Shown here: one piece after another, positions 30,749-48,124 of the stretch | Position numbering within the stretch: the first letter of the stretch is position 1 | How the letters are laid out: each line of letters opens with the position of its first letter | Source of the DNA: Occultella glacieicola | Lineage (GTDB): Bacteria > Actinomycetota > Actinomycetes > Actinomycetales > Beutenbergiaceae | Direction: 5' to 3' | DNA length: 64,000 bases | Assembly: GCF_004353825.1 (NCBI RefSeq) | Contig: NZ_SMNA01000004.1 | Coordinates: 310,001-374,000, forward strand | Notes under the pieces: generated by a model | What the model saw: the letters and a program-made list of their open reading frames with translations, nothing else | Database searches by the model: none | Told to the model about the DNA's origin: nothing | Translations under genes and position numbers: made by a program

Positions 30749-31519
30749 TCAGCGAGGGCCGCGGGCGCGGTCGCCATGCTGGTGATGGAACCGTACGCGC
30801 TGCCCGATCCAGACCGTGCGCGAGGCTTCGATGAGTGCGCCCTCGCTGTCGATACTGACGGCATTGACGACCATCAGGGGAGCCTCCTGCGGGCAGCGCA
30901 GGATCTCCGCGAACTCAGGGGATGCGGTCTCCGGATGGAGGTAGCTGTGTACTTCGGTCGCGACGATGCCGTACCGGCTCTCCAGGGTGGTGGACAGGGA
31001 CCCCTCGATGAGCGGCATGGACTCGATCCCTGGCGCGACGGCCGGTGCGAGCCAGGAATCGGACATGCCGATCGGGTTTCCGTCGACGAGTTGCAGGCGG
31101 CGGAACCAGCGTGGCCCGATGTCGCCGTGGGCGAGGTCCAGGTCGAACAACAGCGCGACGGGCGGCGCTCGAATGTGTTCGGTCGGGACCTCGACGGACG
31201 TCGCCTGCATCCCGGAAGTCGCGAGCCGGTCGCGCCAGGGCTGAGCGATCGCGAGATCGTGCTGGACCACCTGCACGGTCTCCGAGACGAACGTGCCCGA
31301 CCCCTGTCGACGATGGATGTAGCCCTCGTCGGCGAGCGAGCTCAGGGCCTGCCGGACCGTGATCCGGCTGACGCCGTAGTTCTCCGCCAACTCGTTCTCG
31401 CTCGGCAACTGCGCCCCGGACGCGAGTTCGCGTTGCTCGATCCGCCGCCTGATGTCACGGGCGATCTGCCCCCACCGTGCAACGGGAGACCGTCGATCCG
31501 TTGTCGCCGCCATAGTCAT
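30749..31519 (-). CDS. GntR family regulator, HutC/UTRA subfamily
   Basis: LPSENELAENYGVSRITVRQAL...GSGTFV wHTH plus UTRA-like C-terminal domain; start 31519 or 31513. Confidence 0.93.
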   Translation of the reverse strand: MTMAATTDRRSPVARWGQIARDIRRRIEQRELASGAQLPSENELAENYGVSRITVRQALSSLADEGYIHRRQGSGTFVSETVQVVQHDLAIAQPWRDRLATSGMQATSVEVPTEHIRAPPVALLFDLDLAHGDIGPRWFRRLQLVDGNPIGMSDSWLAPAVAPGIESMPLIEGSLSTTLESRYGIVATEVHSYLHPETASPEFAEILRCPQEAPLMVVNAVSIDSEGALIEASRTVWIGQRVRFHHQHGDRARGPR

Positions 31520-31585
31520 CCCCACCCGCTCCCGACCCGTGGGCAACTGTGCCATGCCCCGTGCCGCAAGAGTCCCGTACCGAAG

Positions 31586-31621
31586 TTGTCTTGACAAGGA
31601 TACCCTTAAAGGTACTAAGGT
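31586..31621 (+). promoter_or_regulatory. promoter of the 13-gene operon with HutC/GntR-type operator over the -35
   Basis: TTGTC-TT-GACAA palindrome at 31586-31597 contains TTGACA (31591-31596); AT-rich spacer; candidate -10 TACTAA or TAAGGT; RBS AGGAGG before 31656. Confidence 0.65.
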
Positions 31622-31655
31622 CCCTACAACCAGATGGGCGACCAGGAGGTGAACG

Positions 31656-32615
31656 ATGGACGACATCCGCCAGGTGGCACTCGGTCACGTCGTCATCGAC
31701 GACATCGTGCTCACGGACGGACGAGAACTGACGGGGATGCTCGGTGGCGCCGGTGCCTACGCCGCCCTCGGACAGGCGCTAAGCAGCGGCCGCAGGGTGG
31801 CCCTGCTCTCCGGGATCGGGGCGGACTTCCCGCCGGAGGCGGCCATGCACCTACGGGCTGCAGGCGTCGACCCCGACGCGTTGACCGTCCTGAACGAGCA
31901 CACCCCGCGGACCAGGATCCGCTACTTCGCGGATGGCGAGCGCGAGGAGTCGCCGGCGTACGGCATGACGCACTTCGTCGCCCTCGACCCGACCGCGGCG
32001 ATGCTGCCGCACGGACTCGGCGACCTGTCCGGGGTCTATGCGTTCGCTTCGGTCGAGGACCCGCTCTGGCAGGACGTGCCCGATCTCGCCCGGACGAGCG
32101 GCGCCACTCTGCTGTGGGAGATCCACGCCGACTCGTGCGCGCCGGGCCGGTTCGACGAGGTGGCGGCCCGGTTGGCCGAGGTCGACATCCTTTCCCTCAA
32201 CCGTGCCGAGGCGCGGAACTTGTGTGGCAGCGCGGACCTGACCGTGTGCCTCCGTCGGCTCCTGGAGCACGTCGGCGTGCTCGCGCTGCGGCTCGGGTCG
32301 GACGGCGCGCTTGTCGCCACCCGCACGCGCGTCGCCCGCGCGCGACCCGCGGCGCGAGCCGTGATCGACCCGACCGGGGCCGGCAACGCGTTCAGCGGTG
32401 CGCTCGTCGGCGCGTGGCCCGCCGCCACCACCGGCGAGGAGACAGACCTGAGGTCCCCGCTGGCAGCAGCGATGGCAGCCGCGGCCCTGACCATCGACCA
32501 GTACGGCCCGCCACCGGTGACCGAGTCGGTGCGCGCCAGTTTTCGCGCGCTGGCCCGCTCGGTCGAGGTCACCCTCGCACCCCTCGACTCCCTACAGAAC
32601 GGAACACAGCTGTGA
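31656..32615 (+). CDS. PfkB family carbohydrate kinase, MAK32-like (GAGN anion hole)
   Basis: LGHVVIDDI...LGGAGAYAALG, SLNRAEA, LRLGSDGA, IDPTGAGNAFSGA. Confidence 0.85.
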   Translation: MDDIRQVALGHVVIDDIVLTDGRELTGMLGGAGAYAALGQALSSGRRVALLSGIGADFPPEAAMHLRAAGVDPDALTVLNEHTPRTRIRYFADGEREESPAYGMTHFVALDPTAAMLPHGLGDLSGVYAFASVEDPLWQDVPDLARTSGATLLWEIHADSCAPGRFDEVAARLAEVDILSLNRAEARNLCGSADLTVCLRRLLEHVGVLALRLGSDGALVATRTRVARARPAARAVIDPTGAGNAFSGALVGAWPAATTGEETDLRSPLAAAMAAAALTIDQYGPPPVTESVRASFRALARSVEVTLAPLDSLQNGTQL

Positions 32616-33724
32616 TCAACCCGAACGCCCTGCACGATCAGGTGACCAGCCTGCCTGCCCTGATCAAGGAGCAGACCTGGCGCCTCGAGGAGGACCTGCG
32701 CAAGTCCGTCCCCACGCCGGTCCAGCACGCGATCCGACACGTCGTGCTCACCGGTTCCGGTGACTCGGCGATCGCTGGCCTGGCTGCCGAGCAGACGTTC
32801 CGGCGGTTCGTCGGCGTGCCCGTGTACGCCGGTGAGTCGCTCGCCGTAAGCAGGTTCCTGCTCGACTCCTATGGCAACGAGTACCCGCACACGCCGATGC
32901 TGCTCGCCACGTCGAACTCGGGCGAGGTCGCCCGGGTCGTCGAGGCAGCTCAGCGGGCCGCCGCGGCCGGCGGCTACGTCGTCGGCCTCACCGGGAACGC
33001 GCAGTCGCGGCTGGCCCGGACATCGCAGAGCATCGTCGACGTAGGGGCGCCCGCGTTCCCGGCCGCACCCGGGATGCGCAGCTACGTCATGGCCGTCCTC
33101 GCGCTCAACCTGTTCGCGATCCGGTTCGCCGAGGTGCGGGGGCGTATCACCATGGATGAGGCGCAGGCGCTGCGCGGCGAACTCGCCGGACTCTCCGACG
33201 TGGTTGAGCAGGCGATCGTGACGGCCGATGCTCCGCTGCGTTCCTTGGTGCAGGACTGGCGCGACCTCCAGGGGGTGGAATTCCTCGGCTCGGGGCCGTC
33301 GCGCGCTTCTGCGGCGTTCGGGGTGGCCAAGATCCTCGAGGCCGTCGGCAAGCAGTCTGCCCACGTCGATCTCGAGGAGTTCATCCACCTGAACTACTTC
33401 GAGCGGGCGGCCACCGGCATCGGCACCGTCGTACTGGCGCCGGCCGGCTCCCCGGTCCGCAGCCGCGCGGACGAGCTCGCGCCACTGCTGAACAACCTCG
33501 GCCGGCCGTGGGCCGCCATCGGCTCGGTCACCGACGCGCCCGTCAGCATCGAGATCCCGCAGGTGCGGGAGGAGTTCGCCCCGGTGGTCCAGGCCGCCGT
33601 GCTCGGTCTCCTCGCCGCTCACCTCATGGACGCAACGGGGGAGGAGCCGGGCCGCGGCGCCGTCGGCCCATGGGCGGATTGCGCGGACGGCGCCACCACC
33701 CGCGACAGCCAGATCGTCCTCTGA
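32612..33724 (+). CDS. SIS-domain protein (GlmS C-terminal/FrlB/AgaS-like isomerase or deglycase)
   Basis: GTG overlaps the kinase stop; LTGSGDS, SNSGEV, LTGNAQSRLA, second SIS FLGSGPS...AKILE, LEEFIH. Confidence 0.88.
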   Translation: MINPNALHDQVTSLPALIKEQTWRLEEDLRKSVPTPVQHAIRHVVLTGSGDSAIAGLAAEQTFRRFVGVPVYAGESLAVSRFLLDSYGNEYPHTPMLLATSNSGEVARVVEAAQRAAAAGGYVVGLTGNAQSRLARTSQSIVDVGAPAFPAAPGMRSYVMAVLALNLFAIRFAEVRGRITMDEAQALRGELAGLSDVVEQAIVTADAPLRSLVQDWRDLQGVEFLGSGPSRASAAFGVAKILEAVGKQSAHVDLEEFIHLNYFERAATGIGTVVLAPAGSPVRSRADELAPLLNNLGRPWAAIGSVTDAPVSIEIPQVREEFAPVVQAAVLGLLAAHLMDATGEEPGRGAVGPWADCADGATTRDSQIVL

Positions 33725-33752
33725 GACGACGAGCAGACAAGGACCCCAGACC

Positions 33753-34172
33753 ATGACCAGCCGCCACCCACTACAGACCAATGGCAACGAGGCCTACGAC
33801 ATCCAGCCCGAGATCAACGACGCGGTCACCGAGAGCGGCGTCCAGGAGGGCCTGGTGACGATCGTCGCACCACACACCACCGCGGCGCTCGGAATCATCT
33901 CCTACCACGACCCGCTCGGGCTCGAGGACGTGATGGACGAGTTCCAGCGCCTGGTTCCTGCGCGGATCACCTTCAAGCACGAGCACGACACTCCGCAGGA
34001 CGCAGCCGGACACGTGCTGTCGACGATGGTGGGACCGACGCTCACGCTGATCGTCACCGGCGGCGAGGTGCTCCTCGGGCACTCCCAGAAGGTGTTCTTC
34101 CTCGAGTTCGATGGTCCCCGCAGGCGCCAGTTCTTCGTCAAGGTCACCGCCGACCCGACCCCCGGGGCCTGA
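33753..34172 (+). CDS. yjbQ: YjbQ/UPF0047 family protein (divergent)
   Basis: PHTTAA, FKH, AAGH, LLG..Q.VFFLEFDGPRRR. Confidence 0.88.
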   Translation: MTSRHPLQTNGNEAYDIQPEINDAVTESGVQEGLVTIVAPHTTAALGIISYHDPLGLEDVMDEFQRLVPARITFKHEHDTPQDAAGHVLSTMVGPTLTLIVTGGEVLLGHSQKVFFLEFDGPRRRQFFVKVTADPTPGA

Positions 34173-34175
34173 CCC

Positions 34176-35120
34176 ATGGACGCCGTCGACGCGATCGAGC
34201 CGCACCCGAGAACGACCGGCCCGGACGACGTGCTCGGTCGTTACCGGTACGCAGCGAACATCCCCGCCAACGGGCTCATGATCGATGGCCGGCCGGCCCT
34301 CACCCAACTCGACCCATCCCGGATCGGGCGGTACGTGCTGCTCGTCGTTCGCGACCCCTTGTGCGCCTACGACGAGGACCCGGCCGCCCAGTTCGCCGCC
34401 GAGCTCGACGACGCGGAGCTCGTGGGTCGCTCCGGGATGTTCACCACGTATTCGGGGACTTACGGCGATGCCCCGGTGACCGTGCTCAGCGGGGGATCGG
34501 GCGGCCCCGAGGTGGAGCTCGCGCTCATGGAACTGTTCGAGCACACGAACGCGGACACTTTCATCCGGGTCGGTGGTTCCGGAGGCATGCACGCCCGCGT
34601 GCAACCGGGCGACCTCGTCATCGCCACCGGTGTGGTTCGCGACGAGGGCGTCAGCCAGGCGTACATCCCGCAGGCCTATCCGGGCGTCTGCTCGCCGGAG
34701 GTCGTGCTCGCGCTGACGCAGGCCGCGGCCGGTCACGGCGCACCGTTCCACCTCGGACTCACCCGGTCCACAGACTCGGACTTCGTGGCCGGCGGCCGGC
34801 CCGCTGCGCGCGGCTACTTCCAGCCCGCCCATCTGGACCTCGTGGAGACCTGGACCAGGGCCGGCGTCCTCAACGGAGATCGCGAGTCCGCGGCGATCGT
34901 CACCCTCGCGAGCCTGTTCGGGCTCCGTGGCGGCTCGATCTGCTCGGTCGCCGACAACATCGTCACCGGCGCGAGGTTCATGCCGGGGGCCGGTCACACC
35001 GACGCGATGAGGGTCGCGCTCGACGGTGTCGCCGTGCTTCACGCCATGGATCGCGCGCGCGAGGCCGCCGGGCTTGCCATGTGGATACCAGCGCTCTCCG
35101 AAGCGGGTGGGTCCGCATGA
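34176..35120 (+). CDS. nucleoside phosphorylase (PNP/UDP family), uridine-phosphorylase-like but divergent
   Basis: GSGGPEVELALMEL, FIRVG, PGDLVIATGVVRDEGVSQAY, GDRESAAI, SVADN. Confidence 0.85.
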   Translation: MDAVDAIEPHPRTTGPDDVLGRYRYAANIPANGLMIDGRPALTQLDPSRIGRYVLLVVRDPLCAYDEDPAAQFAAELDDAELVGRSGMFTTYSGTYGDAPVTVLSGGSGGPEVELALMELFEHTNADTFIRVGGSGGMHARVQPGDLVIATGVVRDEGVSQAYIPQAYPGVCSPEVVLALTQAAAGHGAPFHLGLTRSTDSDFVAGGRPAARGYFQPAHLDLVETWTRAGVLNGDRESAAIVTLASLFGLRGGSICSVADNIVTGARFMPGAGHTDAMRVALDGVAVLHAMDRAREAAGLAMWIPALSEAGGSA

Positions 35121-36040
35121 GAACGGTCCTTGTCGACGGCGGACTGAGCCGCGACCATCTGGTCACCGTCGGTCAGCCGCCCCGCTTCGACGAGCCGGGC
35201 GGGCCGGGCGTCTACGCGAGCCTGGCTGCGGTCCTCGCGGTCTCGCTGCTGCGGCATCGGAGTGCGGAATCGATGCAGGTGGCGCTGAGCACGACCCTGC
35301 CGAGAGCCGATGAGGACATTCGGGCGGTGCTCGCCGGGGCGGGCGTCGACCTCAGCCTGTGCGTGGACGGCCCGGCGATCCCGAAGCTCTGGATCCTCAA
35401 CTCCCCGCAGGGGCGGCGGATCGTGCGGACTGCTGCGTCGGCGACGGCACACGAACTCGACGAGACGGACGACCTGGGGACTGCGCCACCCGCCCAGCTG
35501 GGCGCCACCGCGCCCGATGTCCTACTCCGGTGTGCGCCCACCCGGGCGCTCGAAGGTCGACGCCCGGCGGTCACGCTCGTCGACCCGGACCAGCAGTCCC
35601 TGGCGGTCGGCGGCTGGGACTACGTTGCCGAACTCACCCCACGGACCGACGTCTATCTGCCAAGTCGTGTGCAACTGACCCAGCTCGGTGCCGACCCGGT
35701 GGAAGCGGCGTGGGAACTGCGGCGCAGGACGGGCAGGTCGGTGGTCGCCAGGCTCGACGCCGAGGGATCCCTCGTCCTGCCCCCCGGCGGGGGAGCCTGG
35801 CGGGTCGCCGCCGGGACGGTCGACGTCGAGGAGACCACAGGTGCCGGCGACAGTCACGCCGGCGCGTTGGCGGCCGCACTGGCGCAGCCGGGCACGACGC
35901 TCGTCGACGCAACCCTGATCGCCACCGCAGCCGTCGCCCACAACCTTGCGGCGCCCGGAATCGCCGGCCTGATCGGCGGCGACGAGATCACCGAGAACGA
36001 GCTGCGCGGCATTCGCGTGGAGGAACAGGAGCAGCCGTGA
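35117..36040 (+). CDS. PfkB family carbohydrate kinase (divergent)
   Basis: ATG overlaps the previous stop; PGGPGVYASLA, YLPS, VARLDAEGS, ETTGAGDSHAGA. Confidence 0.82.
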   Translation: MRTVLVDGGLSRDHLVTVGQPPRFDEPGGPGVYASLAAVLAVSLLRHRSAESMQVALSTTLPRADEDIRAVLAGAGVDLSLCVDGPAIPKLWILNSPQGRRIVRTAASATAHELDETDDLGTAPPAQLGATAPDVLLRCAPTRALEGRRPAVTLVDPDQQSLAVGGWDYVAELTPRTDVYLPSRVQLTQLGADPVEAAWELRRRTGRSVVARLDAEGSLVLPPGGGAWRVAAGTVDVEETTGAGDSHAGALAAALAQPGTTLVDATLIATAAVAHNLAAPGIAGLIGGDEITENELRGIRVEEQEQP

Positions 36041-36960
36041 CCGACCAGCACACCGCAGCCGCAGCACTCGGCGGCCTCGCAGTTCCCGACATCACGCCAC
36101 TCGGCGGGCGCCGGGCTGCCTTCCTCGGCTGCGGAGACTCACTCGCGGCCGCGAGAGGGGCCGAGGCCGACGGGCATCGGGTCCTGTCCGCCGGTGACGT
36201 CGCCTGGAGCGGCAGCGCCCCTCGCGGGGTCGACCTGGTGGTCCCGCTGTCCTGGTCCGGGCGGACCGGGGCGACGATCCGCGCAGCCCAGGTGGCCAAG
36301 GACGCCGGCCTACCGGTCCTGTCGATCACCTCCAACCCTGCCTCCCCACTGGCCGAGCTCTCGGACGAGCACATCGCCCTGCCTCCCAACGACATCGCCG
36401 AGGACATCCCGGCGATCGGCTACGCGCTGCACTCGTCCGCGATCGCACGGCTGGTCGGCCTCGCCAGTCCGGACCCCGCCACCCTCGCCCGGGACTGGGC
36501 CGATGCCGGACAGGGCGTAGCCCGTGTCGTCACGGCCGCGGGCGGTGAACCGGCCGGGATCACGATCGCGAGCATGCCGGACGCACACGGCGCCGCCGAG
36601 TTCTGGATGCTCAAGATCATCGAGGCCACCGGCATCACGGTCCGGACCGCGTCGATCGAGGAGATCGGTCACGTGGACTACTTCCTCGGCCCGCAGGCCC
36701 ATCTGACCCTGATCGTCTCTGGCGCTGCCGACGCGCCCCGGGCGGACGGGCTCGGTGCCGCGCTGGGCCGCAACGGCCAGCGCGTGGTCCAGATCCGGCT
36801 CAGCGACTTCACCGCCGCGGCTGGGACCGAACGCGAGATCCTCGGCGGTCTCATCGGCGCCGATGTGGCCGCCGGTCTCGCGGTCGCGTGGGGCAGGCCC
36901 CACTTCAGAGGCGGCGTCGTCGACATGTCGGCGCAGCACATCCAGGTGCCGGTCGCCTGA
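36037..36960 (+). CDS. SIS-domain protein (second, shorter paralog)
   Basis: GTG overlaps the previous stop; FLGCGDS, LSWSGRT, ITSNPASPLA, LKIIEATG, IEEIGH. Confidence 0.85.
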   Translation: MTDQHTAAAALGGLAVPDITPLGGRRAAFLGCGDSLAAARGAEADGHRVLSAGDVAWSGSAPRGVDLVVPLSWSGRTGATIRAAQVAKDAGLPVLSITSNPASPLAELSDEHIALPPNDIAEDIPAIGYALHSSAIARLVGLASPDPATLARDWADAGQGVARVVTAAGGEPAGITIASMPDAHGAAEFWMLKIIEATGITVRTASIEEIGHVDYFLGPQAHLTLIVSGAADAPRADGLGAALGRNGQRVVQIRLSDFTAAAGTEREILGGLIGADVAAGLAVAWGRPHFRGGVVDMSAQHIQVPVA

Positions 36961-37008
36961 CCGGACCCACCCCCCGGAGAACCCACATCTCAACGAGGAG
37001 CGTCACCC

Positions 37009-38361
37009 ATGAAGAACATCAGAAGGACCCTTCGGGTCACCGCGGCCGCCGCAGCGATCACGCTATTGGCGGCCTGCGGCGCGGGCGGTGAAGGATCGTC
37101 CGACGGGCGTGAGGAACTCGAACTCTGGTTCTGGGGTGCCACGCCGGCGCAGCGGGCGGCCCTCGAGGAGAACCTCGTCGACGCCTACAACGCCTCGCAG
37201 GACGAGTACACCCTGACGGTCACGTTCAACGAGCGCGTCGACAGCAACATCCAGACCGCGCTCGCGGCCAACGAGGGACCGGACATCGTCTATGGCTCGG
37301 GCCCGTCGTTCGTCTCGCCGTTCGCGCAGAGCGGCAAACTCCTGAACCTCGACGAATACTCCGAGCAGTACGGCTGGCAGGACCGGCTCCTGGCACCGAT
37401 CTACGAGTCCGGCACCGTGGACGGCAGCCTCTACGCCGTCGCCAACTCCATCAACACGGTCGGGATCTTCTACAACCAGGCGGTCCTCGACGACCTCGGA
37501 GTCGGCGTTCCGACCACCATCGAGGAACTTGAGACGGCGTTGGCCGCCGCCCAGGACGCGGGACTCTACCCGTCGGTCACCGGGAACAAGGGCTGGCAGC
37601 CCGTCAACGAGAACTACTCCTCGATGTTCCTGACGGCGGTCGCCGGCCCGGACGCGATGCATGACGTGCTCACCGGCGCGGCCTCGTGGACGGACCAGCC
37701 CTACGTCGATGCCGTCCAGATGAGTGCCGACTGGTACGAGAACGGGTATCTCGGCGGCGGCCAGTACACCAACCTCAACTTCCTCGAGTCCATGCAGCTC
37801 CTCTCGGACGGGCAATCCCCGTTCTTCTTCGGACCGACGCTCGCGTTCCAGTTCGCGGCCGAGTTCTTCAACACCGAGAACGGCAACGTCGACGATCTCG
37901 GCTTCATCCCGTTCCCCACGGTCGGTGCGGAGCTCGAGTCGCCCCTGTACACGCTGGCCACCACCGCGTCCTTCTCGATCAACGCCCAGTCCGAGCATCC
38001 GGATGCCGCCGCCGAGGTCATCGACCACATGCTGACCGAGGACTTCATGAGCACGATGACCGCGCAGTGGCCCGGGTACTGGGGTGTCCCGCTCGCAGGG
38101 GTGGAACTCGACCCGGCGCAGTTCGACGGGCTGTCGGCAGCGTATGTAACCGCGCTCGTCGACATCCTCACCGCCACTGAGGAGGGTCGCTTCGGGTACT
38201 TCACCGGCACGTTCTTCCCACCCCAGACCCAGCAGGCCCTGGTTGACATCGACACGGTGTGGACCGGTCAGGCCGACGCCGAGACCTTCCTGACCGGCAT
38301 CGAGACCACCTTCGCCGCCGAACTCGCCGACGGTGCGGTCCCACCGATCCCGGCGCCCTAG
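37009..38361 (+). CDS. carbohydrate ABC transporter solute-binding lipoprotein
   Basis: Lipobox LAAC, GPDIV, GSLYAV, IFYN, SEHPDAAAE; RBS GAGGAG. Confidence 0.93.
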   Translation: MKNIRRTLRVTAAAAAITLLAACGAGGEGSSDGREELELWFWGATPAQRAALEENLVDAYNASQDEYTLTVTFNERVDSNIQTALAANEGPDIVYGSGPSFVSPFAQSGKLLNLDEYSEQYGWQDRLLAPIYESGTVDGSLYAVANSINTVGIFYNQAVLDDLGVGVPTTIEELETALAAAQDAGLYPSVTGNKGWQPVNENYSSMFLTAVAGPDAMHDVLTGAASWTDQPYVDAVQMSADWYENGYLGGGQYTNLNFLESMQLLSDGQSPFFFGPTLAFQFAAEFFNTENGNVDDLGFIPFPTVGAELESPLYTLATTASFSINAQSEHPDAAAEVIDHMLTEDFMSTMTAQWPGYWGVPLAGVELDPAQFDGLSAAYVTALVDILTATEEGRFGYFTGTFFPPQTQQALVDIDTVWTGQADAETFLTGIETTFAAELADGAVPPIPAP

Positions 38362-38370
38362 CAGTGGTGA

Positions 38371-38407
38371 CGGGTGGGTCGCCCACGCAGTGCGGCCGAC
38401 CCACCCG
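38371..38407 (+). terminator. intercistronic stem-loop after the SBP gene (partial terminator or mRNA stabiliser)
   Basis: CGGGTGGGTCG...CGACCCACCCG 11-bp stem. Confidence 0.55.
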
Positions 38408-38430
38408 AACCCGCAGGAACGGAACGACTC

Positions 38431-39357
38431 ATGACAGTTCTGAACTCTGTGCAGCCTGACGCCGACACCGCGACCGTCAAGGATGCCCGTCGTGGACGGG
38501 GACATGGTGTCCATTACCTACTCCTGGCGCCGGCGATCCTGCTCTCGATGGCGATCGTGCTCGTTCCCGGCGTGTTCACGTTGGTCACCTCGTTCACCGA
38601 CTGGAACGGTGTCGCGGCCGACCCGGAGTTCGTGGGCGTCGAGAACTACGCGGCGATCCTCGCGGATCCGATCTTCCGGACCGCCGTCGGGAACAACATC
38701 ATCTGGACCCTGTTGTTCCTGACCATCCCCGTTGTCCTCGGGTTGGGCGTGGCGTTACTGCTGCTTCGCCGGCCGCGCACGCGCGGGCTCTACCAGGTCA
38801 TCTTCCTGCTGCCCTACGTGATGGCCGCGGTCACGAACGCGATGGTCTGGCTGAACATGATCTACAGCCCCATCTCCGGAGTGATCGGGTTCCTGAACAA
38901 GCAGGGCTGGGACATCGACTCGCCGATCTCCAGCCTCGACGGCGCGATCTACGCGGTGGCCGCCGTCGACATCTGGCACTACTGGGGCTTCCTCCTCGTC
39001 GTCTACCTCGCGGCGCTGCGACAGACGCCGGTGGAGCAGATCGAGGCGGCCCAGCTCGAGGGAGCCAACTCGTGGCAGGTGTTCCGCTACGTCTACCTGC
39101 CGAACATCCGCCCCACGATGCAACTCATGTTCGTGATGATCATGATCTTCTCCTTCCTCACGTTCGACTACATCTTCCTGATGACCCAGGGCGGACCCGC
39201 CAACTCCACGGAGATGCTCAGCACGTTCGCCTACAGCCTCGCGTTCGCGACGTTCCAGTTCGGAAAGGCCGCGGCCGTCGGCATCGTCATGGGTGTGTTC
39301 GGGCTCGTCGCCTCCGTCATCTACACCCGCATGAGCCGGAGAGGCATGGACGTATGA
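38431..39357 (+). CDS. carbohydrate ABC transporter permease (MalF-like)
   Basis: SFTDWNG, EAAQLEGAN, GGPANSTE, FGKAAA. Confidence 0.93.
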   Translation: MTVLNSVQPDADTATVKDARRGRGHGVHYLLLAPAILLSMAIVLVPGVFTLVTSFTDWNGVAADPEFVGVENYAAILADPIFRTAVGNNIIWTLLFLTIPVVLGLGVALLLLRRPRTRGLYQVIFLLPYVMAAVTNAMVWLNMIYSPISGVIGFLNKQGWDIDSPISSLDGAIYAVAAVDIWHYWGFLLVVYLAALRQTPVEQIEAAQLEGANSWQVFRYVYLPNIRPTMQLMFVMIMIFSFLTFDYIFLMTQGGPANSTEMLSTFAYSLAFATFQFGKAAAVGIVMGVFGLVASVIYTRMSRRGMDV

Positions 39358-40190
39358 GCCGCAGCTCGAACCGGGCGCTGCGGGCGACCCCCGGTCACAT
39401 CATTCTCATCCTGCTCGTGTTCACGGCGCTGTTCCCGATCGTGCTGGTGCTGCTGAACAGCCTGAAGGATGCCCCGGAGGTGGTGCGCAATCCACTCGCG
39501 CTGCCCGAGTCCCCGGACTGGTCGAACTTCGCCGAAGCGTGGCAGTACGCCGGATACACCCGCGGATTCGCCAACAGTGTGCTGCTCACTGCCACGACGG
39601 TCGCGACCGTGCTATTGACCGCGGCGCCGGCGGCCTACGTGCTCGCTGCTCGCAAGATCAAGGCGGCCGGCCCGGTGATGATCTATCTCATGGTGGCCAT
39701 GACGGTGCCGATCCAACTCTTCCTGTTCCCGCTCTACGCGGTGTTCGCCCGGCTCGGCCTGCTCAGCAACGTCGTCGCCGTCGGCGTGATCGTCGCCGCG
39801 ATCAACATGCCCCTCGCCGTCATGCTGCTGCGCACGTTCTTCCTGCGGATCCCGAGCGAACTGCCGGAGGCCGCCACCATGGACGGCGCGAACACCTTCC
39901 AGGTGCTCCGGCACGTGCTGGTCCCTGCCGTCTCGCCCGGCATGATCACCGTCGGCATCATCGTAGGGCTGAACGCCTGGAACGAGTACCTCATCTCGGT
40001 GACGTTCCTCCAGCGGGAGGAGAGCTACACCGCCACCCTCGGGTTCCTGTCCCTGACCGGAACGTTCGCGGTCGACCAGGGGGTCCTGATGGCCGGCGCG
40101 GCCATCCTGATCCTCCCGATCGTCTTCCTCTTCCTAGCCGCCCAGCGCAAGTTCGTCGACGGTCTCGTCAGCGGTTCGGTCAAGGGGTGA
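39354..40190 (+). CDS. carbohydrate ABC transporter permease (MalG-like)
   Basis: ELPEAATMDGA, WNEYL, QRKFVDGL..GSVKG. Confidence 0.93.
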   Translation: MSRSSNRALRATPGHIILILLVFTALFPIVLVLLNSLKDAPEVVRNPLALPESPDWSNFAEAWQYAGYTRGFANSVLLTATTVATVLLTAAPAAYVLAARKIKAAGPVMIYLMVAMTVPIQLFLFPLYAVFARLGLLSNVVAVGVIVAAINMPLAVMLLRTFFLRIPSELPEAATMDGANTFQVLRHVLVPAVSPGMITVGIIVGLNAWNEYLISVTFLQREESYTATLGFLSLTGTFAVDQGVLMAGAAILILPIVFLFLAAQRKFVDGLVSGSVKG

Positions 40191-40201
40191 TCCCGGTGGT
40201 C

Positions 40202-42343
40202 ATGAAAGAGCAGGACTACACGGAACGCACGTATGCGGGGGTACTCGGGAAGATCATCGGCGTCTACCTGGGGCGCCCTGTCGAGGGCTGGCCCTACGCC
40301 GACATCGCCGAGCGGTTCGGGACGTTGACGCACTACGTCAACGACCAACTCGGGATCCCGGTCGTGACCGCGGATGACGACATCTCGGGCACGTTCGCGT
40401 TCTCCCGCGCGGTGCTCGACCACGCCGGCACCGGGCCGCTCAACGCCCGGCAGGTCGGCGAGACCTGGCTCAACTACATCGTCGAGGACCGCACGATCCT
40501 GTGGTGGGGCGGACGTGGGCGATCCACCGAACACACCGCCTATCTGAACCTCAAGAACGGCGTGCCCGCGCCCGGATCGGGCTCCGCGCGACGCAACGGG
40601 CGGACCCTACCCGTGCAGGTGGGCGCCCAGATCTTCGTCGACGGCTTCGCCATGATGAGTCCCGGTGACCCGGACCGGGCCGCTGCCCACGCCCGGGCGG
40701 CGGCCTCCGTGAGCCACGACGGCGTGGCCGTGGATGCGGCCGCGTTCATCGCCGCGATGGAGGCACTCGCCTACATCGAACCCGACCTGCACGTCCTGAT
40801 CGAGACGGGACGGACCCAGGTCAAGGATCCGGTCCTGCAGCAGATCATCGACGACGTGCTGACCTGGTGCGCGCCAGGCGCCGACTGGCGTGGGGTCCGG
40901 GACCGGATCGAGCAGACGTACGGCTACTCCGTGTTCCACGGCCCGTGCCCGGCCACGACCAACAACGCCGCGGTGCTCTCGGCCCTTCTGCTCGGTGGCG
41001 ACAGCTTCCACCGGGCCGTCTCGATCGCGTCCTCGGCCGGCTGGGACACCGACTCCAACGCCGGCGTGGTCGGCGCACTGAACGGGATCAGACTCGGGCT
41101 CAGCGCCCTGGACGCGGAGGCGGACCTGCGCTCGCCGGTGGCCGACCAGTTGCTGGTGGTGACCGCGGACGGTGGGGAGTGCATCTCCGACGCGGTGCAG
41201 CAGACGCGGGCCATCACGGCCGGCAGACGCCTCCTCGACGGTCTCCCACCTGCGCCTCGGCCGGCACGATTCGCATTCGAACTGCCCGGCTCCGTGCAGG
41301 GCTTCGCCCCGTGCCCGGACGTCGCTTCGCCCTACACCCGGGTAGCGGTCGCCAACGTCCACCCGCGCCCCGGCGGACGGGTCGGCCCGGATGCGGGCGG
41401 CCTGGTGATCACGTGCGCGGGCATCGCCGAAACGGTGCCCGCGGCCGTCTCCACCCCGGTGTTCCTACCGAGGGCCGCGGACGGGGACAACTTCTCGACC
41501 ATCGCCAGCCCGACCCTCTACCCCGGGCAGCGCGTCCGGTTGACTGCCCGCCTCGCGGCGCCCACGTCGCAGGCAGGCCCGACGCTGCGCCCGTACGTGC
41601 TCACCGAGGCTGACGCACGGATGGTGGCGACGTTCGGTCCCGACCTCCTCCTGGCGGAGGAGCCACGCGAGGTGGTCTGGGAGGTGCCCGAGGTCGGTGC
41701 GAACCCGATCCTGCGACTCGGTGTGGCGGTGACCTCCACGAGCCGGTTCGACGGCGACGTGGTGCTGGAGCGGGTGGACTGGTCCGGCGCACCGGTTCGC
41801 CACGCCCGGTCCGGCGTCCTGATGACCTCGATCTGGGACCTCACCCCGGAGCCGCTGCGGGCGTGGGTGAGCTCGGCGAAGGACTTCGAGGCCGACTTCA
41901 GGTACTCCTACTCCGTGTCCCACCCCGAGGGGACCGGATTGGCGACCATCGGCACCCGGGACTGGGACGACTACACGTTCTCCTCGACCCTCGTGTTCAA
42001 TCCCCACGAACGCGGCGGCCTGGTGGTCCGGGCCCGCGGACACCGCCGCTACTACGCCGCGGTGTTCGAGTCGTGGCAGCGGATCTCGTTGGTGCGCCGC
42101 GACCACGACCGTGAGGAGATCCTCGCGAGCGCACCCTTCACGTACGCCGAGGACGTGCCCTATCGGGTCACGGTGAGCTGCCATCGGGACCGGCTCACGG
42201 TCAGGATCGACGACGCCGAGGTCCTGACCGCCTCGGACGACGCCGCGAACGCGCACTCGAGCGGAGGCGCGGGCTTCCTCGTCACGACCGGCACCGTGCT
42301 CGCCGACGGCTTCGAGGTCGGTTCGCTCGGGCCGGACCGATGA
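40202..42343 (+). CDS. ADP-ribosylglycohydrolase (ARH/DraG) family protein with long C-terminal beta-rich extension
   Basis: YAGVLGKIIGVYLGRPVEGW, ADDDIS, SHDG, GWDTDSNAG metal-binding motifs in the first ~320 aa; ~390-aa tail ending WDDYTFS...GGAGF. Alternative GTG start at 40187. Confidence 0.88.
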   Translation: MKEQDYTERTYAGVLGKIIGVYLGRPVEGWPYADIAERFGTLTHYVNDQLGIPVVTADDDISGTFAFSRAVLDHAGTGPLNARQVGETWLNYIVEDRTILWWGGRGRSTEHTAYLNLKNGVPAPGSGSARRNGRTLPVQVGAQIFVDGFAMMSPGDPDRAAAHARAAASVSHDGVAVDAAAFIAAMEALAYIEPDLHVLIETGRTQVKDPVLQQIIDDVLTWCAPGADWRGVRDRIEQTYGYSVFHGPCPATTNNAAVLSALLLGGDSFHRAVSIASSAGWDTDSNAGVVGALNGIRLGLSALDAEADLRSPVADQLLVVTADGGECISDAVQQTRAITAGRRLLDGLPPAPRPARFAFELPGSVQGFAPCPDVASPYTRVAVANVHPRPGGRVGPDAGGLVITCAGIAETVPAAVSTPVFLPRAADGDNFSTIASPTLYPGQRVRLTARLAAPTSQAGPTLRPYVLTEADARMVATFGPDLLLAEEPREVVWEVPEVGANPILRLGVAVTSTSRFDGDVVLERVDWSGAPVRHARSGVLMTSIWDLTPEPLRAWVSSAKDFEADFRYSYSVSHPEGTGLATIGTRDWDDYTFSSTLVFNPHERGGLVVRARGHRRYYAAVFESWQRISLVRRDHDREEILASAPFTYAEDVPYRVTVSCHRDRLTVRIDDAEVLTASDDAANAHSSGGAGFLVTTGTVLADGFEVGSLGPDR

Positions 42344-43245
42344 CGGGTATCGCCGTGGTGGGCAGCCTCAACGAGGACCTCGTGGTGGAGGTCGTCGTGG
42401 CACCCGCGGCCGGTGAGACCGTATTGGCCCGTGGTCACCAGCGCGGACTCGGGGGCAAGGGCGCCAACCAGGCCGTCGCGGCGGCCAGGCTCGGCGGCCG
42501 AGTACATCTGACGGGGTGCGTCGGTGACGATGCCGGCGGCAACGAGTTCCGGCGTCGGCTGGCCGCCGAGCGGATCGATACGACCGGCATCCGGGTGCGT
42601 GACGGCGGTGCCACTGGACTCGCCGTCATCGTCGTCGACCGAGCCGGGGAGAACCGGATCCTGGTCAGCGCCGGCAGCAACGCGACCTTGGGCCAGGGGG
42701 ACCTCTCCGAGGGTGCCCTGGCCACGGCGTCCGTCGTGCTTGCGCAGCTGGAGGTGCCGGCGGACGCGGTGCTGGCTGCGTTCCGGATGGCCGCCGGGCG
42801 TCGGATCCTCAACGCTGCACCGGCCGCTCCGGTGTCGGCGGAGCTGCTCGAGCTCGTCGACATTCTGGTTGTCAATGAGACCGAGCTCGCCTCGATCACG
42901 GGCCGGGGGATCCCCGAGAGTCCCCACGAAGCACTCGCACAGGCCGGCGTCGTGACCGGACCGGAGACGGTCGTCGTCACGCTGGGCGGCTCGGGTTGCG
43001 TGGTACTCACCTCCGGTGAGTCATGGCACGAACCCGGTCGCACCGTTCCGGTCGTCGACACGACAGCGGCCGGCGATGCCTTCTGTGGCGCCCTCGCCGT
43101 GCGGCTCAGCGTGGGCGACGACCTGCGGAGCGCGGTGCGGTACGCGACCCGGGTGGGCGCTGCCGTCGTGACCCGTCGTGGAGCCATCGACTCCCTCCCA
43201 ACCCTTACCGAACTCGACGATCCGGACGAAGGATGGAACGCATGA
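42340..43245 (+). CDS. rbsK: ribokinase
   Basis: VVGSLNED, GETV, GGKGANQAVAAARLG, GENRI, QLEVP, NAAPA, VNETE, VDTTAAGDAF. Confidence 0.9.
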   Translation: MTGIAVVGSLNEDLVVEVVVAPAAGETVLARGHQRGLGGKGANQAVAAARLGGRVHLTGCVGDDAGGNEFRRRLAAERIDTTGIRVRDGGATGLAVIVVDRAGENRILVSAGSNATLGQGDLSEGALATASVVLAQLEVPADAVLAAFRMAAGRRILNAAPAAPVSAELLELVDILVVNETELASITGRGIPESPHEALAQAGVVTGPETVVVTLGGSGCVVLTSGESWHEPGRTVPVVDTTAAGDAFCGALAVRLSVGDDLRSAVRYATRVGAAVVTRRGAIDSLPTLTELDDPDEGWNA

Positions 43246-44192
43246 CCAGCAAACTCATCATCGACTGTGACCCGGGCATCGACGACGCCCTGGCCATCAT
43301 CCTCGCCCTCAAGGACCCCGGCCTCGAGATCCTGGCGCTCACTGCGGTCACCGGGAACCTCCCGTCCGACCGCACCGCGGTGAACGCCCGCAAGGTGCTC
43401 GAACTCATGGGCGAGCGCGGGACGCCCGTCGCCCAGGGGCCGCTGCAGCCGATCTCACGGGAGTACCCCCACGACCCGTTCTCGCACGGGGACGACGGCC
43501 TCGCGAACACCGCCCTACCGGAGCCGACACTGCCCCTGGAGGACCGCAGTGCCGCGCAACTGATCGTCGACGTCATCAACGACAACGCCGGAGACATCGC
43601 GATCGCCGTGCTCGGCCCGATGACGAACATCGCCCTGGCGCTCGAACTCGACCCGGACCTGCCCCGCAAGGTGAGCAGGATGACGGCCATCGCCGGGTCG
43701 TTCGGATTCACCCGCTACGCGTGGACCCAAGCCACCGGCGACAACCCGGTCAGCGAGTGGAACGTCTACGTCGACCCCGGCGCGGCCGCCACGGTGTTCG
43801 CCGCCGGCTTCGCGCTGACCGCCGTCGGACTGGACGTCGCCACACACCCGGACGTGAATCTCAGCCCGGAGCGATTCGACCGACTCGCCGCGAGTGGGCG
43901 ACCCGAGGCACGGTTCGCGGCCGACATCGTCAGGTTCGTCCGCGGCCGCGGGTACCAGAGCTACTGCGCCCTGATCGACTCGCTGGCGATCGCAGCCCTC
44001 GTCCATCCTGAACTCATGACCACCCAGCGGATCCATTGCGCCGTGGAGACCCGCGGCGAGCTGACTCTCGGCATGACGGTCGCGGACGTCCGCAACCACC
44101 ACCGCTGGGAACACCTGCCACTGCTGGAGGCCGTGAGCGACGTCGATTTCGACGGTTTCCTCGACTATCTCGTCGACGGGCTGGTGCGATGA
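43242..44192 (+). CDS. nucleoside hydrolase (IU-NH fold)
   Basis: DCDPGIDDA Ca-binding motif, TGN, HGDDGL, LGPMTNIA, SEWNVYVDP, GLDV. Confidence 0.92.
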   Translation: MTSKLIIDCDPGIDDALAIILALKDPGLEILALTAVTGNLPSDRTAVNARKVLELMGERGTPVAQGPLQPISREYPHDPFSHGDDGLANTALPEPTLPLEDRSAAQLIVDVINDNAGDIAIAVLGPMTNIALALELDPDLPRKVSRMTAIAGSFGFTRYAWTQATGDNPVSEWNVYVDPGAAATVFAAGFALTAVGLDVATHPDVNLSPERFDRLAASGRPEARFAADIVRFVRGRGYQSYCALIDSLAIAALVHPELMTTQRIHCAVETRGELTLGMTVADVRNHHRWEHLPLLEAVSDVDFDGFLDYLVDGLVR

Positions 44193-45235
44193 TTCGGCAG
44201 ATGAGCGACGTCCCGGCGAACCCCGCCACGCCTCCCTGCGCTGAGCTGCACCTGCACATCGAGGGCACGCTGGAGCCGGACCTGGTGTTCGCGCTCGCGG
44301 AGCGCAACGGGATCGAGCTTCCGGATCGGGACATCGCCGGACTGCGGTCCCGGTACGCCTTCACCGACCTGCAGTCCTTCCTCGACCTCTACTACGAGAA
44401 CATGGCGGTGCTGCGCACGCCGGCCGACTTCGCGGAGATGACGCGCGCCTACCTGACCCGGGCCCGGGCGGCCGGGGTTCGGCACGCCGAGATCATGTTC
44501 GACCCGCAGGCCCACCTGGCCCGGGGGGTGCCGCTGGCCACCAGCGTCGAGGGCATCGCGTCCGTGCTCCGCGCGAGCGAGGCCGAGTTCGGGATCTCGA
44601 CGGGGCTGATCGCGGCGTTCCTTCGGGACCGACCGGCCACCGAAGCGCTCGAGGTCCTCGAGGATCTGTTGGCGATGGACGCGCCGATCATCGGCATCGG
44701 CCTCGACTCCGCCGAGGTGGGGAACCCGCCGTCGGGCTTCACCGCGGTCTACGACCGCGCCCGCCGGGCCGGACTGCACCTGGTGGCGCACGCGGGGGAG
44801 GAGGGACCGCCGTCGTACATCGCAGACGCGCTCGACGACCTCGGCGTCGAGCGGATCGACCACGGGATCCGGTGCCTCGACGACCCGGCACTCGTGGCGA
44901 GGCTGGCCGCCGAGCAGATCCCGCTGACCGTCTGCCCGCTGTCCAACGTGCGGCTGCGGGCGGTGCCCTCACTCGTCGAGCACCCGCTGCGGCGGCTGCT
45001 CGAGGCCGGGGTGGTCGTGACGATCAACTCCGACGACCCGGCCTACTTCGGCGGCTACGTCGATGACAACCTGCACGCCGTGCGGGAGGTCCACAAGCTG
45101 ACCGACGACGAGCTGGCGGCGCTCGCGGCGAACTCGTTCCGCGCCTCCTTCCTCGACGGCGACCGGCGGGATGCGTTGCTCGCCGAGGTCGAGGCGTGGC
45201 GAACCTCGGCGCCCCCGGCCCTCGGTGCGAACTGA
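44189..45235 (+). CDS. adenosine deaminase family protein, likely adenine deaminase
   Basis: HLHIEGTLE, LQSFLDLYY, HAGEEG, RIDHG, CPLSN, NSDDPAYFGG. Alternative start 44201. Confidence 0.9.
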   Translation: MIRQMSDVPANPATPPCAELHLHIEGTLEPDLVFALAERNGIELPDRDIAGLRSRYAFTDLQSFLDLYYENMAVLRTPADFAEMTRAYLTRARAAGVRHAEIMFDPQAHLARGVPLATSVEGIASVLRASEAEFGISTGLIAAFLRDRPATEALEVLEDLLAMDAPIIGIGLDSAEVGNPPSGFTAVYDRARRAGLHLVAHAGEEGPPSYIADALDDLGVERIDHGIRCLDDPALVARLAAEQIPLTVCPLSNVRLRAVPSLVEHPLRRLLEAGVVVTINSDDPAYFGGYVDDNLHAVREVHKLTDDELAALAANSFRASFLDGDRRDALLAEVEAWRTSAPPALGAN

Positions 45236-45248
45236 GGGACCGGAGCGG

Positions 45249-46196
45249 TCAACCGGACGGGTGCCGATCCGGCCTGGGACTCGGCAGCCCGAGGACCACG
45301 GCCAGCCAGGTCAGATTGATCGAGGCGAGGTCGATGAACACCTGACGGAGCCAGTCCGGTTGCGTGCTCACGCAGGCGCGCTGCAGCGACGGCCCGGCAA
45401 GCCTGGCGATGAGCGGTGCGGGTTCGGTGCACACCTGCCACGGCGGCGGACCACCCTCCAGCTGGAGCGTGGGGAGGAGTTGCACGAGGTCGTGCCACTC
45501 GTGGCCGGCGCCGGCGTGCGACCAGTCGACGAGGCGAGCTTCGCGCTCGTCGGCTTCGCCGACGATGCAGAGGTTGTCGCTGCGGAGGTCGCCATGCACC
45601 AGGTGGGCGTCGAGTTCGAGAGCCTCGTCCGCCTCCGCATCGACAGTGGTGAGGGTCTCGGCATTCGCCTCGAGCCAGCCGGGGGTGACCACACCGAGAT
45701 CGGCGAGTCGGCCGGCCAGCTCGATGACACGTTGCCACTGTGGGCCCGGCCAACTGGTGGTACGCGGTAGCTCGGCGGCGATCGGCACCCGGCGCAAACG
45801 GTCGAGCGTGCGGCGGAGGACGTCGATGTCACCGGGGCGCCACAGCGTCGATGTGCCCTCGCCCGGATCCTCGATGCCGGCCGCGGGCCAGTAAGCGGCG
45901 GACAGGTCCTCGGTGACCAGCAGCGGCGCTCCCGTGCCGTCGTCCTGCCAGCCCTGGACCTCGGGGGCGAGGCCGGTGCCACGCAGGTGATCGAGGAACC
46001 GGTGCTCATTGCGCAGCCAGCCCGCGGTCTCGGCGGTCCGCGCCGCCTTGACGAACGCGGCGCCGCCATCGCTGAACGTGACGATCAACCGGTCCGCCGC
46101 TGACAGCCCGAACTCGGGTGCACGCCAGATCACCGCAGTCTTGCCGAGCAGCGACTCCACCGCCCCGGCGATCGCGGGCCTTTCGGCAGATCTCAC
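45249..46196 (-). CDS. aminoglycoside phosphotransferase (APH)/choline kinase-like protein
   Basis: AFVK, WLRNE, LVTEDL, Brenner motif HGDLRSDN, LVDW. Confidence 0.8.
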   Translation of the reverse strand: MRSAERPAIAGAVESLLGKTAVIWRAPEFGLSAADRLIVTFSDGGAAFVKAARTAETAGWLRNEHRFLDHLRGTGLAPEVQGWQDDGTGAPLLVTEDLSAAYWPAAGIEDPGEGTSTLWRPGDIDVLRRTLDRLRRVPIAAELPRTTSWPGPQWQRVIELAGRLADLGVVTPGWLEANAETLTTVDAEADEALELDAHLVHGDLRSDNLCIVGEADEREARLVDWSHAGAGHEWHDLVQLLPTLQLEGGPPPWQVCTEPAPLIARLAGPSLQRACVSTQPDWLRQVFIDLASINLTWLAVVLGLPSPRPDRHPSG

Positions 46197-46236
46197 CCGC
46201 CAGGTATACCAGCCGGCGCCGGTCGGAGCGCAGGGG

Positions 46237-47067: not shown

Positions 47068-47127
47068 GTCAGGAGCCTGCTTTCGTCTGGGCCCGGCGGT
47101 GGGCGCCGCCGGGATCGTGATGAGGAG

Positions 47128-48108: not shown

Positions 48109-48124
48109 CGGTGCTTCCTTTCAG

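Follow-up and report, generated by a model that had tools for sequence, protein, structure and literature searches.

Enzymes of the ribose-utilization systems (RUS) of Bacteroidetes are proposed to free ribose from ribose-containing nutrients that are still unidentified (bioRxiv 10.1101/574913). The physiological substrate of the Escherichia coli yegTUV operon is unidentified too (PMC10819704). Here we describe a 13-gene operon of Occultella glacieicola, located in a stretch of 64,000 nucleotides (contig NZ_SMNA01000004.1, positions 310,001 to 374,000; hereafter the window), that resembles both systems in its gene families. It encodes an ABC importer of the CUT1 type, a long ADP-ribosylglycohydrolase family protein (ARH-long), two PfkB-fold proteins (PfkB1 and PfkB2), two SIS-domain proteins (SIS1 and SIS2), a YjbQ/UPF0047 protein, a PNP/UDP-like protein, a ribokinase-like protein, an IU-type nucleoside hydrolase (IUNH) and an ADA-fold deaminase, next to a divergent gene for a GntR regulator. 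On balance, we lean toward reading this operon as a repressor-controlled catabolic version of a cross-phylum module that would import and dismantle a ribose-bearing purine (adenine) nucleoside-type glycoside, with a confidence slightly better than even. Full-text literature searches returned no description of this gene set or its pathway, in agreement with an earlier annotation made from the sequence (hereafter the original prediction), which knew of no characterized pathway with these genes.

To survey its conservation, the ARH-long protein was searched against one genome per species, yielding 51 loci (near-full-length matches in 15), and a metagenome scan added another 73. Among the pooled loci, 87 had an ARH match covering at least half of the query, 57 of these retained at least 9 kb of flank and 39 of those showed an ARH identity of at least 44%. 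Core loci were defined by the presence of at least 3 of 4 markers, namely PfkB1, YjbQ, the PNP/UDP-like protein and IUNH. Overall, 33/39 loci qualified, and full-length ARH genes were found in 32 of these 33, representing 28 groups at 90% ARH identity with G+C contents of 35–73%. Five of the six remaining loci (L009, L061, L075, L100 and L101) end at a contig edge no more than about 2.5 kb from the ARH gene, leaving a single locus (L063) that truly lacks the partners. Below 44% ARH identity, the core was detected in only 3 of 18 loci. The frequencies of individual partners among the 39 loci are listed in Table 1; in addition, SIS1 or SIS2 was found in 32/39 and a second ARH-long gene in 29/39. 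When all 14 window proteins were compared by tblastn, seven loci were found to retain 10–13 of 13 partner genes in rearranged order. These belong to Occultella aeris, Georgenia subflava, Nonomuraea antimicrobica and Prauserella flavalba as well as to metagenome-assembled genomes of Actinomycetota, Microbacteriaceae and Acidimicrobiaceae, and they come from different actinobacterial families. Among 400 other sampled Actinomycetota genomes, ARH-long was present in 2 (E ≤ 1e-60), neither with the full module, and the PNP/UDP-like query matched in 1 (E ≤ 1e-40), a protein with canonical uridine-phosphorylase motifs. Found again in many genomes that are not related, the gene set is a conserved module and no chance mosaic; the neighborhood comparison put forward with the original prediction thus found its homologues to be syntenic. 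The records carrying the module include those labeled as human gut, fermentation and marine metagenomes and, together with the wide range of G+C content, this suggests that the nutrient is likely common. Carriers of the gene set range from actinomycetes of soil to low-GC bacteria of gut type.

The composition of low- and mid-GC versions was determined by Pfam scans, which covered seven loci in whole (L103, L065, L071, L069, L091, L115 and L129) and the flanks of three more (L080, L110 and L081). Common to these versions, and forming a core that spans phyla, are the CUT1 ABC importer (binding protein and two permeases), one or two ARH-long genes, PfkB1, the PNP/UDP-like gene, the GlmS-like SIS1, YjbQ and IUNH. 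GntR orthologues adjoin the cluster in 14/39 loci, while low-GC versions use LacI, which replaces GntR in 8 of the 10 scanned; Pfam scans detected no regulator gene in L129 or in the short contig L071. PfkB2, SIS2, the ADA-type deaminase and GntR are restricted to high-GC versions and represent actinobacterial extras. Other accessory genes encode a DeoD-type PNP (11 loci), a two-domain Nuc_deoxyrib_tr protein (12 loci), recurring ribokinase-like proteins, a phosphopentomutase (L103 and L070), a type I phosphodiesterase/nucleotide pyrophosphatase (L065, L082 and L096) and a sulfatase-superfamily enzyme together with an HAD phosphatase (L129). An adenine deaminase of the Amidohydro_1/Adenine_deam_C type is encoded in L103 (1305–3008) and L070, with weaker homologues in L098 and L083, and judged by its family it looks like a non-orthologous replacement of the ADA-fold deaminase in low-GC versions.

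In ARH-long, the Pfam ADP_ribosyl_GH domain covers only residues 13–305 of 713 (157.6 bits against a cut-off of 26.2), and by sequence the protein has no PDB match at E < 0.01. An AlphaFold (AF2) model built from 39 sequences (pLDDT 92.5) predicts an ARH fold at residues ~1–345, followed by a beta-sandwich (~355–535) and a CBM66-like beta-sandwich (~555–708). In Foldseek comparisons, the first domain resembles MJ1187 (1t5j, TMt 0.78), a Thermus ARH-related protein, DraG, ARH1 and ARH3, with TMt values ranging from 0.6 to 0.78; the last domain resembles Bacillus subtilis CBM66 (4b1m/4azz, TMt 0.79–0.81) and the tandem beta region galactocerebrosidase. Residues E28, D58-D59-D60 and D282-T283-D284 are invariant in the 39 sequences, and we take E28 to be the catalytic Glu and D58–D60/D282–D284 the two-metal site of ARH enzymes. 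No signal peptide is present at the N-terminus, and the stop codon of the gene overlaps the start of the ribokinase-like gene. The oligosaccharide class of the importer, the pairing with ribose genes and the glycosidase-like domain build together suggest that ARH-long may be a cytoplasmic hydrolase releasing ribose from an imported glycoside.

The ARH-long family is large: of 8000 candidates scored, 6325 matched at E ≤ 1e-5. The 120 best matches are all 690–739 aa long, and the source names shown for them are generic, "ADP-ribosylglycohydrolase (family protein)" and in one case "hypothetical protein". In a tree built from 104 sequences, two module-linked paralogue clades were resolved, with most modules carrying one gene of each and both clades present in 29/39 loci. 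Paralogues about 48% identical are found at L002:14000–16144, L003:7869–9983, L005:7836–9986, L006:687–2741 and L008:2681–4789. The window and O. aeris harbor only a clade-B gene, and no second copy is present in the genome of the window.

More distant ARH-long proteins (39–41% identity) are found in other surroundings. Those of L010–L012 lie in arrays of the order LacI-ribokinase-RbsD-ARH-ABC-sulfatase, and those of L014 and L015 lie beside ABC systems with sugar-oxidation genes. In the arrays at L010:7589–16608 and L012:7612–19240, these genes are followed by one or two sulfatases, with a formylglycine-generating enzyme in L012, and their target may be a sulfated ribose-containing glycoside. 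In genome G245 (L058:3982–9104), an ARH-long gene (43%) located outside the full module lies near genes for an ADA-type deaminase (56%) and YjbQ (39%). Several Streptomyces loci (L018–L026 and L032) carry a short ARH gene (~300 aa) and, immediately after it, a ribokinase-like gene 44–46% identical to that of the window, the same pairing as E. coli yegU-yegV.

Three products of the operon belong to families that handle ribose, nucleosides and adenine. The ribokinase-like protein gives a full-length match and carries the kinase Asp but falls short of the equivalog models (TIGR02152, 275.2 bits against a cut-off of 299.65; PRK11142, 240.9 against 341). IUNH likewise stays under the cut-offs of the RihA, RihC and UriH models. 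The deaminase passes NF006850, a model named adenosine deaminase, and its best structural relatives are 3rys (6e-137) and 3ou8/3pan/3pao (2e-99), with other adenosine deaminase structures listed at 7e-40 at best. We take 3rys and 3ou8/3pan/3pao to be adenine deaminases of the Pa0148 type, the latter three being Pa0148 itself, the Pseudomonas adenine deaminase. The unrelated adenine deaminase of other module versions provides independent support for adenine as a product. On the uptake side, the binding protein has a signal sequence with a lipobox (LLAAC), and its best PDB relatives are oligosaccharide binders, namely 4g68 (6e-28) and the chitin-oligosaccharide proteins NagB1/NagB2. No ATPase gene is present within the operon; elsewhere in the genome, seven matches to MalK/MsiK-like ATPases were found (E ≤ 1e-40).

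Two of the remaining constant partners show altered active sites. In PfkB kinases, the Asp of the G-A-G-D anion-hole motif is catalytic, while the NxxE and GG motifs serve ATP/Mg and substrate binding. PfkB1 has Asn244 (G-x-G-N) in place of this Asp, invariant in 13/13 aligned sequences, and among 46 high-scoring segment pairs from orthologues the Asp occurs in none (the motif is GxGN in register in 42, GGN offset by a single residue in 2, and lies outside the aligned part in the last 2). D15, G30-G31 and S180-x-N182-x-x-E185 are invariant, so that NxxE and GG are kept. The Asp itself is retained in PfkB2 (GAGD), the ribokinase-like protein (AAGD), FrlD and YegV. Lacking the catalytic Asp, PfkB1 is a doubtful kinase, and the ESM Atlas placed it in generic PfkB clusters only. 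A similar situation was found for the PNP/UDP-like protein. Its best PDB matches are uridine phosphorylases, yet it scores 147.8 bits against the 280.3 cut-off of TIGR01718. Compared with E. coli uridine phosphorylase (1k3f), R91, R168 and E198 are retained, whereas six positions are replaced (R30 to P69, R48 to G87, T94 to G134, F162 to D202, Q166 to G206 and M197 to R236), the first five of them at phosphate- and uracil-binding residues of uridine phosphorylase. The altered motifs are conserved in module-linked orthologues; the unlinked L060 protein is canonical. Without its phosphate ligands, the protein may act as a hydrolase or use another co-substrate, and we assume that it resembles hydrolase members of its superfamily more than phosphorylases. 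Conservation of the changes in both proteins points to non-standard chemistry and not to decay.

SIS1 and SIS2 are distant paralogues (25% identity over 203 aa, E 2e-5) with a common K..E...H motif, which presumably corresponds to the GlmS catalytic residues. Both are predicted to be double-SIS proteins of the GlmS-isomerase/FrlB class. SIS1 matches NCBIfam GlmS models (1e-15) and NagB-II (1.6e-5), all under cut-off, and in the PDB 3knz (3e-10) followed by GlmS isomerase domains. Orthology to the fructoselysine (Frl) system was considered and rejected. SIS1 aligns to FrlB at E 0.53 and SIS2 over 176 aa with 24% identity (E 3e-5); PfkB1 aligns to E. coli FrlD over 78 aa only (E 8e-8), and the NCBIfam FrlD model NF007321 matches the ribokinase-like gene only (57.9 bits against a cut-off of 247) and neither PfkB1 nor PfkB2. 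YjbQ is among the most conserved partners, with 86% identity to Georgenia and 63% to Nonomuraea; a 2026 preprint describes its family as lacking a clear function.

These results refine the original prediction in several respects. Its claim of a single conserved functional unit stands, but GntR, PfkB2/SIS2 and the ADA-type deaminase turned out to be lineage extras, and the Frl architecture it invoked holds at family level (PfkB, double-SIS and HutC-type GntR), not as orthology of the kinase/SIS pairs. The protein it called an ARH has the fold and intact motifs, but the rest of the chain forms two beta-sandwich domains, and its multi-domain build and ribose-gene context suggest release of ribose and not de-ADP-ribosylation. 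Disposal of adenine and ribose is corroborated by the Pa0148-like relatives of the deaminase and by its non-homologous counterpart in low-GC versions. At least four non-canonical active sites had been counted; this was verified for PfkB1 and the PNP/UDP-like protein, while ARH-long and SIS1/SIS2 retain their motifs and the sequence is DCDPGIDD in IUNH, HLH in the deaminase and, at the kinase motif, GAGD in PfkB2 and AAGD in the ribokinase-like protein. As possible substrates, ADP-ribosyl or ribulosyl amino acids had been proposed.

The families of the genes, their layout in the operon, the conserved set and the motif changes are observed directly, and the fold of ARH-long is modeled; the substrate, the direction of flux and each enzymatic step are what we infer. 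The lipoprotein and two CUT1 permeases would import a di- or oligosaccharide-sized compound, powered by a shared MsiK-like ATPase encoded elsewhere. In the cytoplasm, ARH-long would serve as an exo-glycosidase with two beta-sandwich domains of a sugar-binding type, its two-metal site cleaving a ribosyl glycosidic bond, and the freed ribose would be phosphorylated by the product of the overlapping ribokinase-like gene. IUNH would split the leftover ordinary nucleoside into base and ribose, and the ADA-fold enzyme would deaminate adenine to hypoxanthine. The quartet of PfkB1, GlmS-like SIS, YjbQ and PNP-like protein may process the unusual moiety of the substrate, most likely an amino sugar or otherwise modified sugar, which would be converted into a normal sugar phosphate, with PfkB2/SIS2 as a putative second, lineage-specific kinase/isomerase pair. 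Removal of ribose, base and adenine can be reasonably inferred. Several points weigh against this reading. The ribokinase-like gene is present in only 5/39 loci and adenine deaminases, counting both types, in about 10, so that ribose and adenine are indicated mainly by accessory genes. The constant partners PfkB1, SIS, YjbQ and PNP-like protein have no explained role, and the substrate could be no nucleoside at all. Characterized ARH enzymes are known to act on ADP-ribosyl (5''-phosphorylated) groups, and an ARH cleaving a plain riboside was not found in the literature searched. Finally, the per-partner identity cut-offs were fixed after the data were seen, and many of the metagenome loci, even dereplicated, may come from related organisms. 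A bolder version, which we put forward tentatively and would not count on, is a cross-phylum pathway for ribosylated nucleosides in which ARH-fold proteins act as cytoplasmic exo-ribosidases while the Asp-less PfkB and YjbQ carry out new sugar chemistry. If true, the ARH fold, known from the removal of ADP-ribose, would acquire a new function as an exo-ribosidase, and the orphan YjbQ family would gain its first physiological role.

As a special case of the nucleoside-type glycoside reading, the module might scavenge O-ribosyl-adenosines left over when phosphodiesterases and phosphatases have digested poly(ADP-ribose), ADP-ribose adducts or 2'-O-ribosylated tRNA nucleosides, with ARH-long cutting ribose-ribose bonds and IUNH, adenine deaminase and ribokinase completing the breakdown. 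ARH3 cleaves the ribose-ribose bond of poly(ADP-ribose), and the ARH fold with intact catalytic motifs, the two ARH-long clades found side by side in 29/39 loci and an uptake class that carries di- or trisaccharide-sized ligands all agree with such a diet, as do the phosphodiesterases and the sulfatase-superfamily/HAD phosphatase pair of some versions. We nevertheless regard it as unlikely, because it offers no function for the most constant partners (PfkB1, SIS, YjbQ and PNP-like protein), and because these compounds are thought to be scarce, a poor fit with a widespread module. Moreover, ARH-long has no sequence match to a solved ARH, and its specificity therefore need not resemble that of ARH3. 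In an Frl-like pathway, as read in the original prediction, the imported compound would be a ketosamine (Amadori compound) or an amino-sugar conjugate, perhaps one that joins ribose or ADP-ribose to an amine, and a kinase together with a GlmS/FrlB-class SIS "deglycase" or deaminase would set free the amine and a sugar phosphate. Both SIS proteins are GlmS-class double-SIS proteins with K..E...H, the kinase-then-SIS order with overlapping codons occurs twice, and the operon pairs a CUT1 importer with a HutC-type GntR, as does the B. subtilis frl operon. However, there is no FrlB or FrlD orthology, the kinase beside the core SIS lacks the catalytic Asp in all orthologues, and the accompanying nucleoside hydrolase, PNP-type enzymes and adenine deaminases would be left unexplained, which makes such a substrate quite unlikely.

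Those nucleoside enzymes could in turn point to ordinary nucleoside or ribose salvage, with ARH, PfkB1, SIS and YjbQ as side activities or passengers. IUNH, the ribokinase-like gene and the deaminase, joined elsewhere by DeoD and phosphopentomutase, are indeed those of standard nucleoside catabolism, but the supposed passengers are the most constant members across G+C contents of 35–73%, with conserved specialized active sites, and the importer is of an oligosaccharide class. We therefore consider plain salvage improbable. Least credible of all, to the point that we hardly entertain it, is that ARH-long is a regulatory DraG-like protein de-ADP-ribosylase with coincidental neighbors. Its Pfam family and its fold similarity to DraG and ARH1/3 are what such a role would predict; against it stand the constant link to an ABC importer and catabolic genes, the extra carbohydrate-module-like domains and the fact that an ADP-ribosyltransferase partner was seen in no locus whose genes were scanned.

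The layout of the operon is summarized in Table 1. Genes were called in the window, which is about 70% G+C, by frame analysis of third-codon-position G+C content (GC3), translation, Pfam and NCBIfam. GC3 frames delimit an unbroken plus-strand coding run of 13 genes, facing away from the minus-strand regulator gene, and the gene list, order and common orientation of the original prediction were upheld by all of these analyses. The genes are coupled by 4-nt stop/start overlaps (ATGA or GTGA) at 7 of 12 junctions. The junction of permease 2 and ARH-long would be an eighth if ARH-long starts at the alternative GTG, and the remaining gaps measure 28, 3, 48 and 12 nt. A simple scan detected no terminator-like site within the operon. 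Judged from gene overlaps alone, the 13 genes are predicted to be co-transcribed. A 934-aa open reading frame at 39539–42343 was rejected as a single gene, since over its first 650 nt it runs across permease 2 in a different frame, and GC3 indicates that its own frame turns coding only from ~40190.

Table 1. Features of the O. glacieicola operon and its control region, with the number of loci (out of 39) in which each partner was found
Feature	Position in window	Strand	Basis	Loci (of 39)
GntR (HutC-type, helix-turn-helix + UTRA)	30749..31519	-	Pfam GntR 81.6 bits, UTRA 67.1 bits; start 31519 chosen from sequence	14
Divergent control region, 136 bp	31520..31655	.	Read from sequence	
PfkB1 (ribokinase fold, G-x-G-N)	31656..32615	+	Pfam PfkB 69.1 bits	37
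SIS1, 370-aa double-SIS, GTG start	32612..33724	+	Pfam SIS; start overlaps PfkB1 stop	26
YjbQ/UPF0047	33753..34172	+	Pfam 110 bits; TIGR00149 98.4 bits > 67.75 cut-off	32
PNP/UDP-like protein (PNP_UDP_1), 65-aa N-terminal extension	34176..35120	+	Pfam 101.2 bits	33
PfkB2, canonical GAGD	35117..36040	+	Pfam PfkB 40.2 bits	11
SIS2, 307 aa	36037..36960	+	Pfam SIS 39.3 bits	11
Solute-binding lipoprotein, CUT1-type	37009..38361	+	Pfam SBP_bac_1 76 bits	33
ABC permease 1; possible alternative start ATG 38431	38374..39357	+	Pfam BPD_transp_1; GC3-based start	
ABC permease 2	39354..40190	+	Pfam BPD_transp_1	
ARH-long, 713 aa; alternative GTG start 40187	40202..42343	+	Pfam ADP_ribosyl_GH 157.6 bits	
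Ribokinase-like PfkB (RbsK), AAGD	42340..43245	+	Pfam PfkB 201.8 bits	5
IU-type nucleoside hydrolase (IUNH), DCDPGIDD	43242..44192	+	Pfam IU_nuc_hydro 268.1 bits	33
ADA-fold deaminase, adenine-deaminase subgroup, HLH	44189..45235	+	NF006850 464.7 bits > 419 cut-off	7

In the control region, the sequence TTGACA (31591–31596) lies inside the palindrome TTGTCttGACAA (31586–31597), and AGGAGG, a good ribosome-binding site, precedes the ATG at 31656. The palindrome over the -35 box had been noted in the original prediction. Inspection by eye and a pattern search found it only once in the window; its arms measure 5 nt, and the corresponding position in the closest relative, the O. aeris locus L001 (92–99% identical), reads TTGTAttGACAA and is thus not conserved. 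A strict consensus scan found no promoter-like site in the control region, and an inverted-repeat finder found no inverted repeats there. With short arms, a different sequence in O. aeris and an empty strict promoter scan, the palindrome is a weak detail. By eye, a GGTAT...TAcAAC-like stretch is visible downstream of the -35 box (window 31610–31640) and recurs in the promoters of L001, L002, L003, L006, L008 and L009. Judged from this sequence comparison, it is a better operator candidate than TTGTCttGACAA.

The genes flanking the operon are unrelated to it. Upstream lie an NmrA-like gene, an AraC/cupin regulator gene and a PIN gene; the last, encoding a VapC-like PIN-domain protein (29931–30341, minus strand), sits between the AraC/cupin regulator gene (28823–29785) and the GntR gene. 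Directly 3' of the operon, a convergent minus-strand group (45249–49432) encodes an APH-family phosphotransferase, KduI/IolB, a D-2-hydroxyacid dehydrogenase and a TRAP DctM permease, and shows no conservation with the module.

The module bundles four families without an assigned physiological function, namely the 700-aa ARH, YjbQ/UPF0047, the PfkB-Asn subfamily and a PNP/UDP subfamily lacking the phosphate site. Because they are encoded together with an importer and a regulator in a single operon, these functions are directly testable, and naming the nutrient would inform both E. coli yegTUV and the ARH-containing ribose-utilization loci of Bacteroides.

Compared with known systems, individual members of the module are recognizable relatives of characterized proteins. 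ARH-long has its catalytic fold and Glu/Asp-rich motifs in common with ARH3, ARH1, DraG and MJ1187, but carries about 370 extra residues (two beta-sandwiches) and occurs in a catabolic rather than a regulatory context. The PNP/UDP-like protein shares the fold family of uridine phosphorylase (PNP_UDP_1) while falling under the equivalog cut-off with its binding residues replaced. At the level of operons, E. coli frlABCDR likewise encodes a kinase of the PfkB family and a GlmS-class double-SIS protein, with a HutC-type GntR as regulator; in contrast to the operon described here, its FrlD keeps the catalytic Asp and it has no nucleoside enzymes and no ARH. E. coli yegTUV with yegW (GgaR) also brings together a transporter, a member of the ARH family and a PfkB kinase, along with a GntR repressor of the HutC type (PMC10819704). 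Orthology was rejected here as well, with ARH-long matching YegU at 25% over 76 aa, PfkB1 matching YegV at E 0.004 and GntR matching GgaR at 23%; furthermore, yegT encodes a major facilitator superfamily transporter instead of an ABC system, genes for SIS, YjbQ, PNP-like protein and hydrolase are lacking, and YegV reads GAGD. The RUS of Bacteroidetes differ from the module in relying on SusC/D outer-membrane uptake and many glycoside hydrolase families, in place of a CUT1 ABC importer and a 700-aa three-domain ARH, and the available part of the report makes no mention of the fixed quartet of PfkB-Asn, SIS, YjbQ and PNP-like protein (bioRxiv 10.1101/574913). Like the module, however, RUS as described there combine ribokinases and an importer with variable cleavage enzymes that include nucleoside hydrolases and ADP-ribosylglycohydrolases (bioRxiv 10.1101/574913). 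By this analogy in composition, the RUS of Bacteroides are, at system level, the closest analogue of the O. glacieicola operon.

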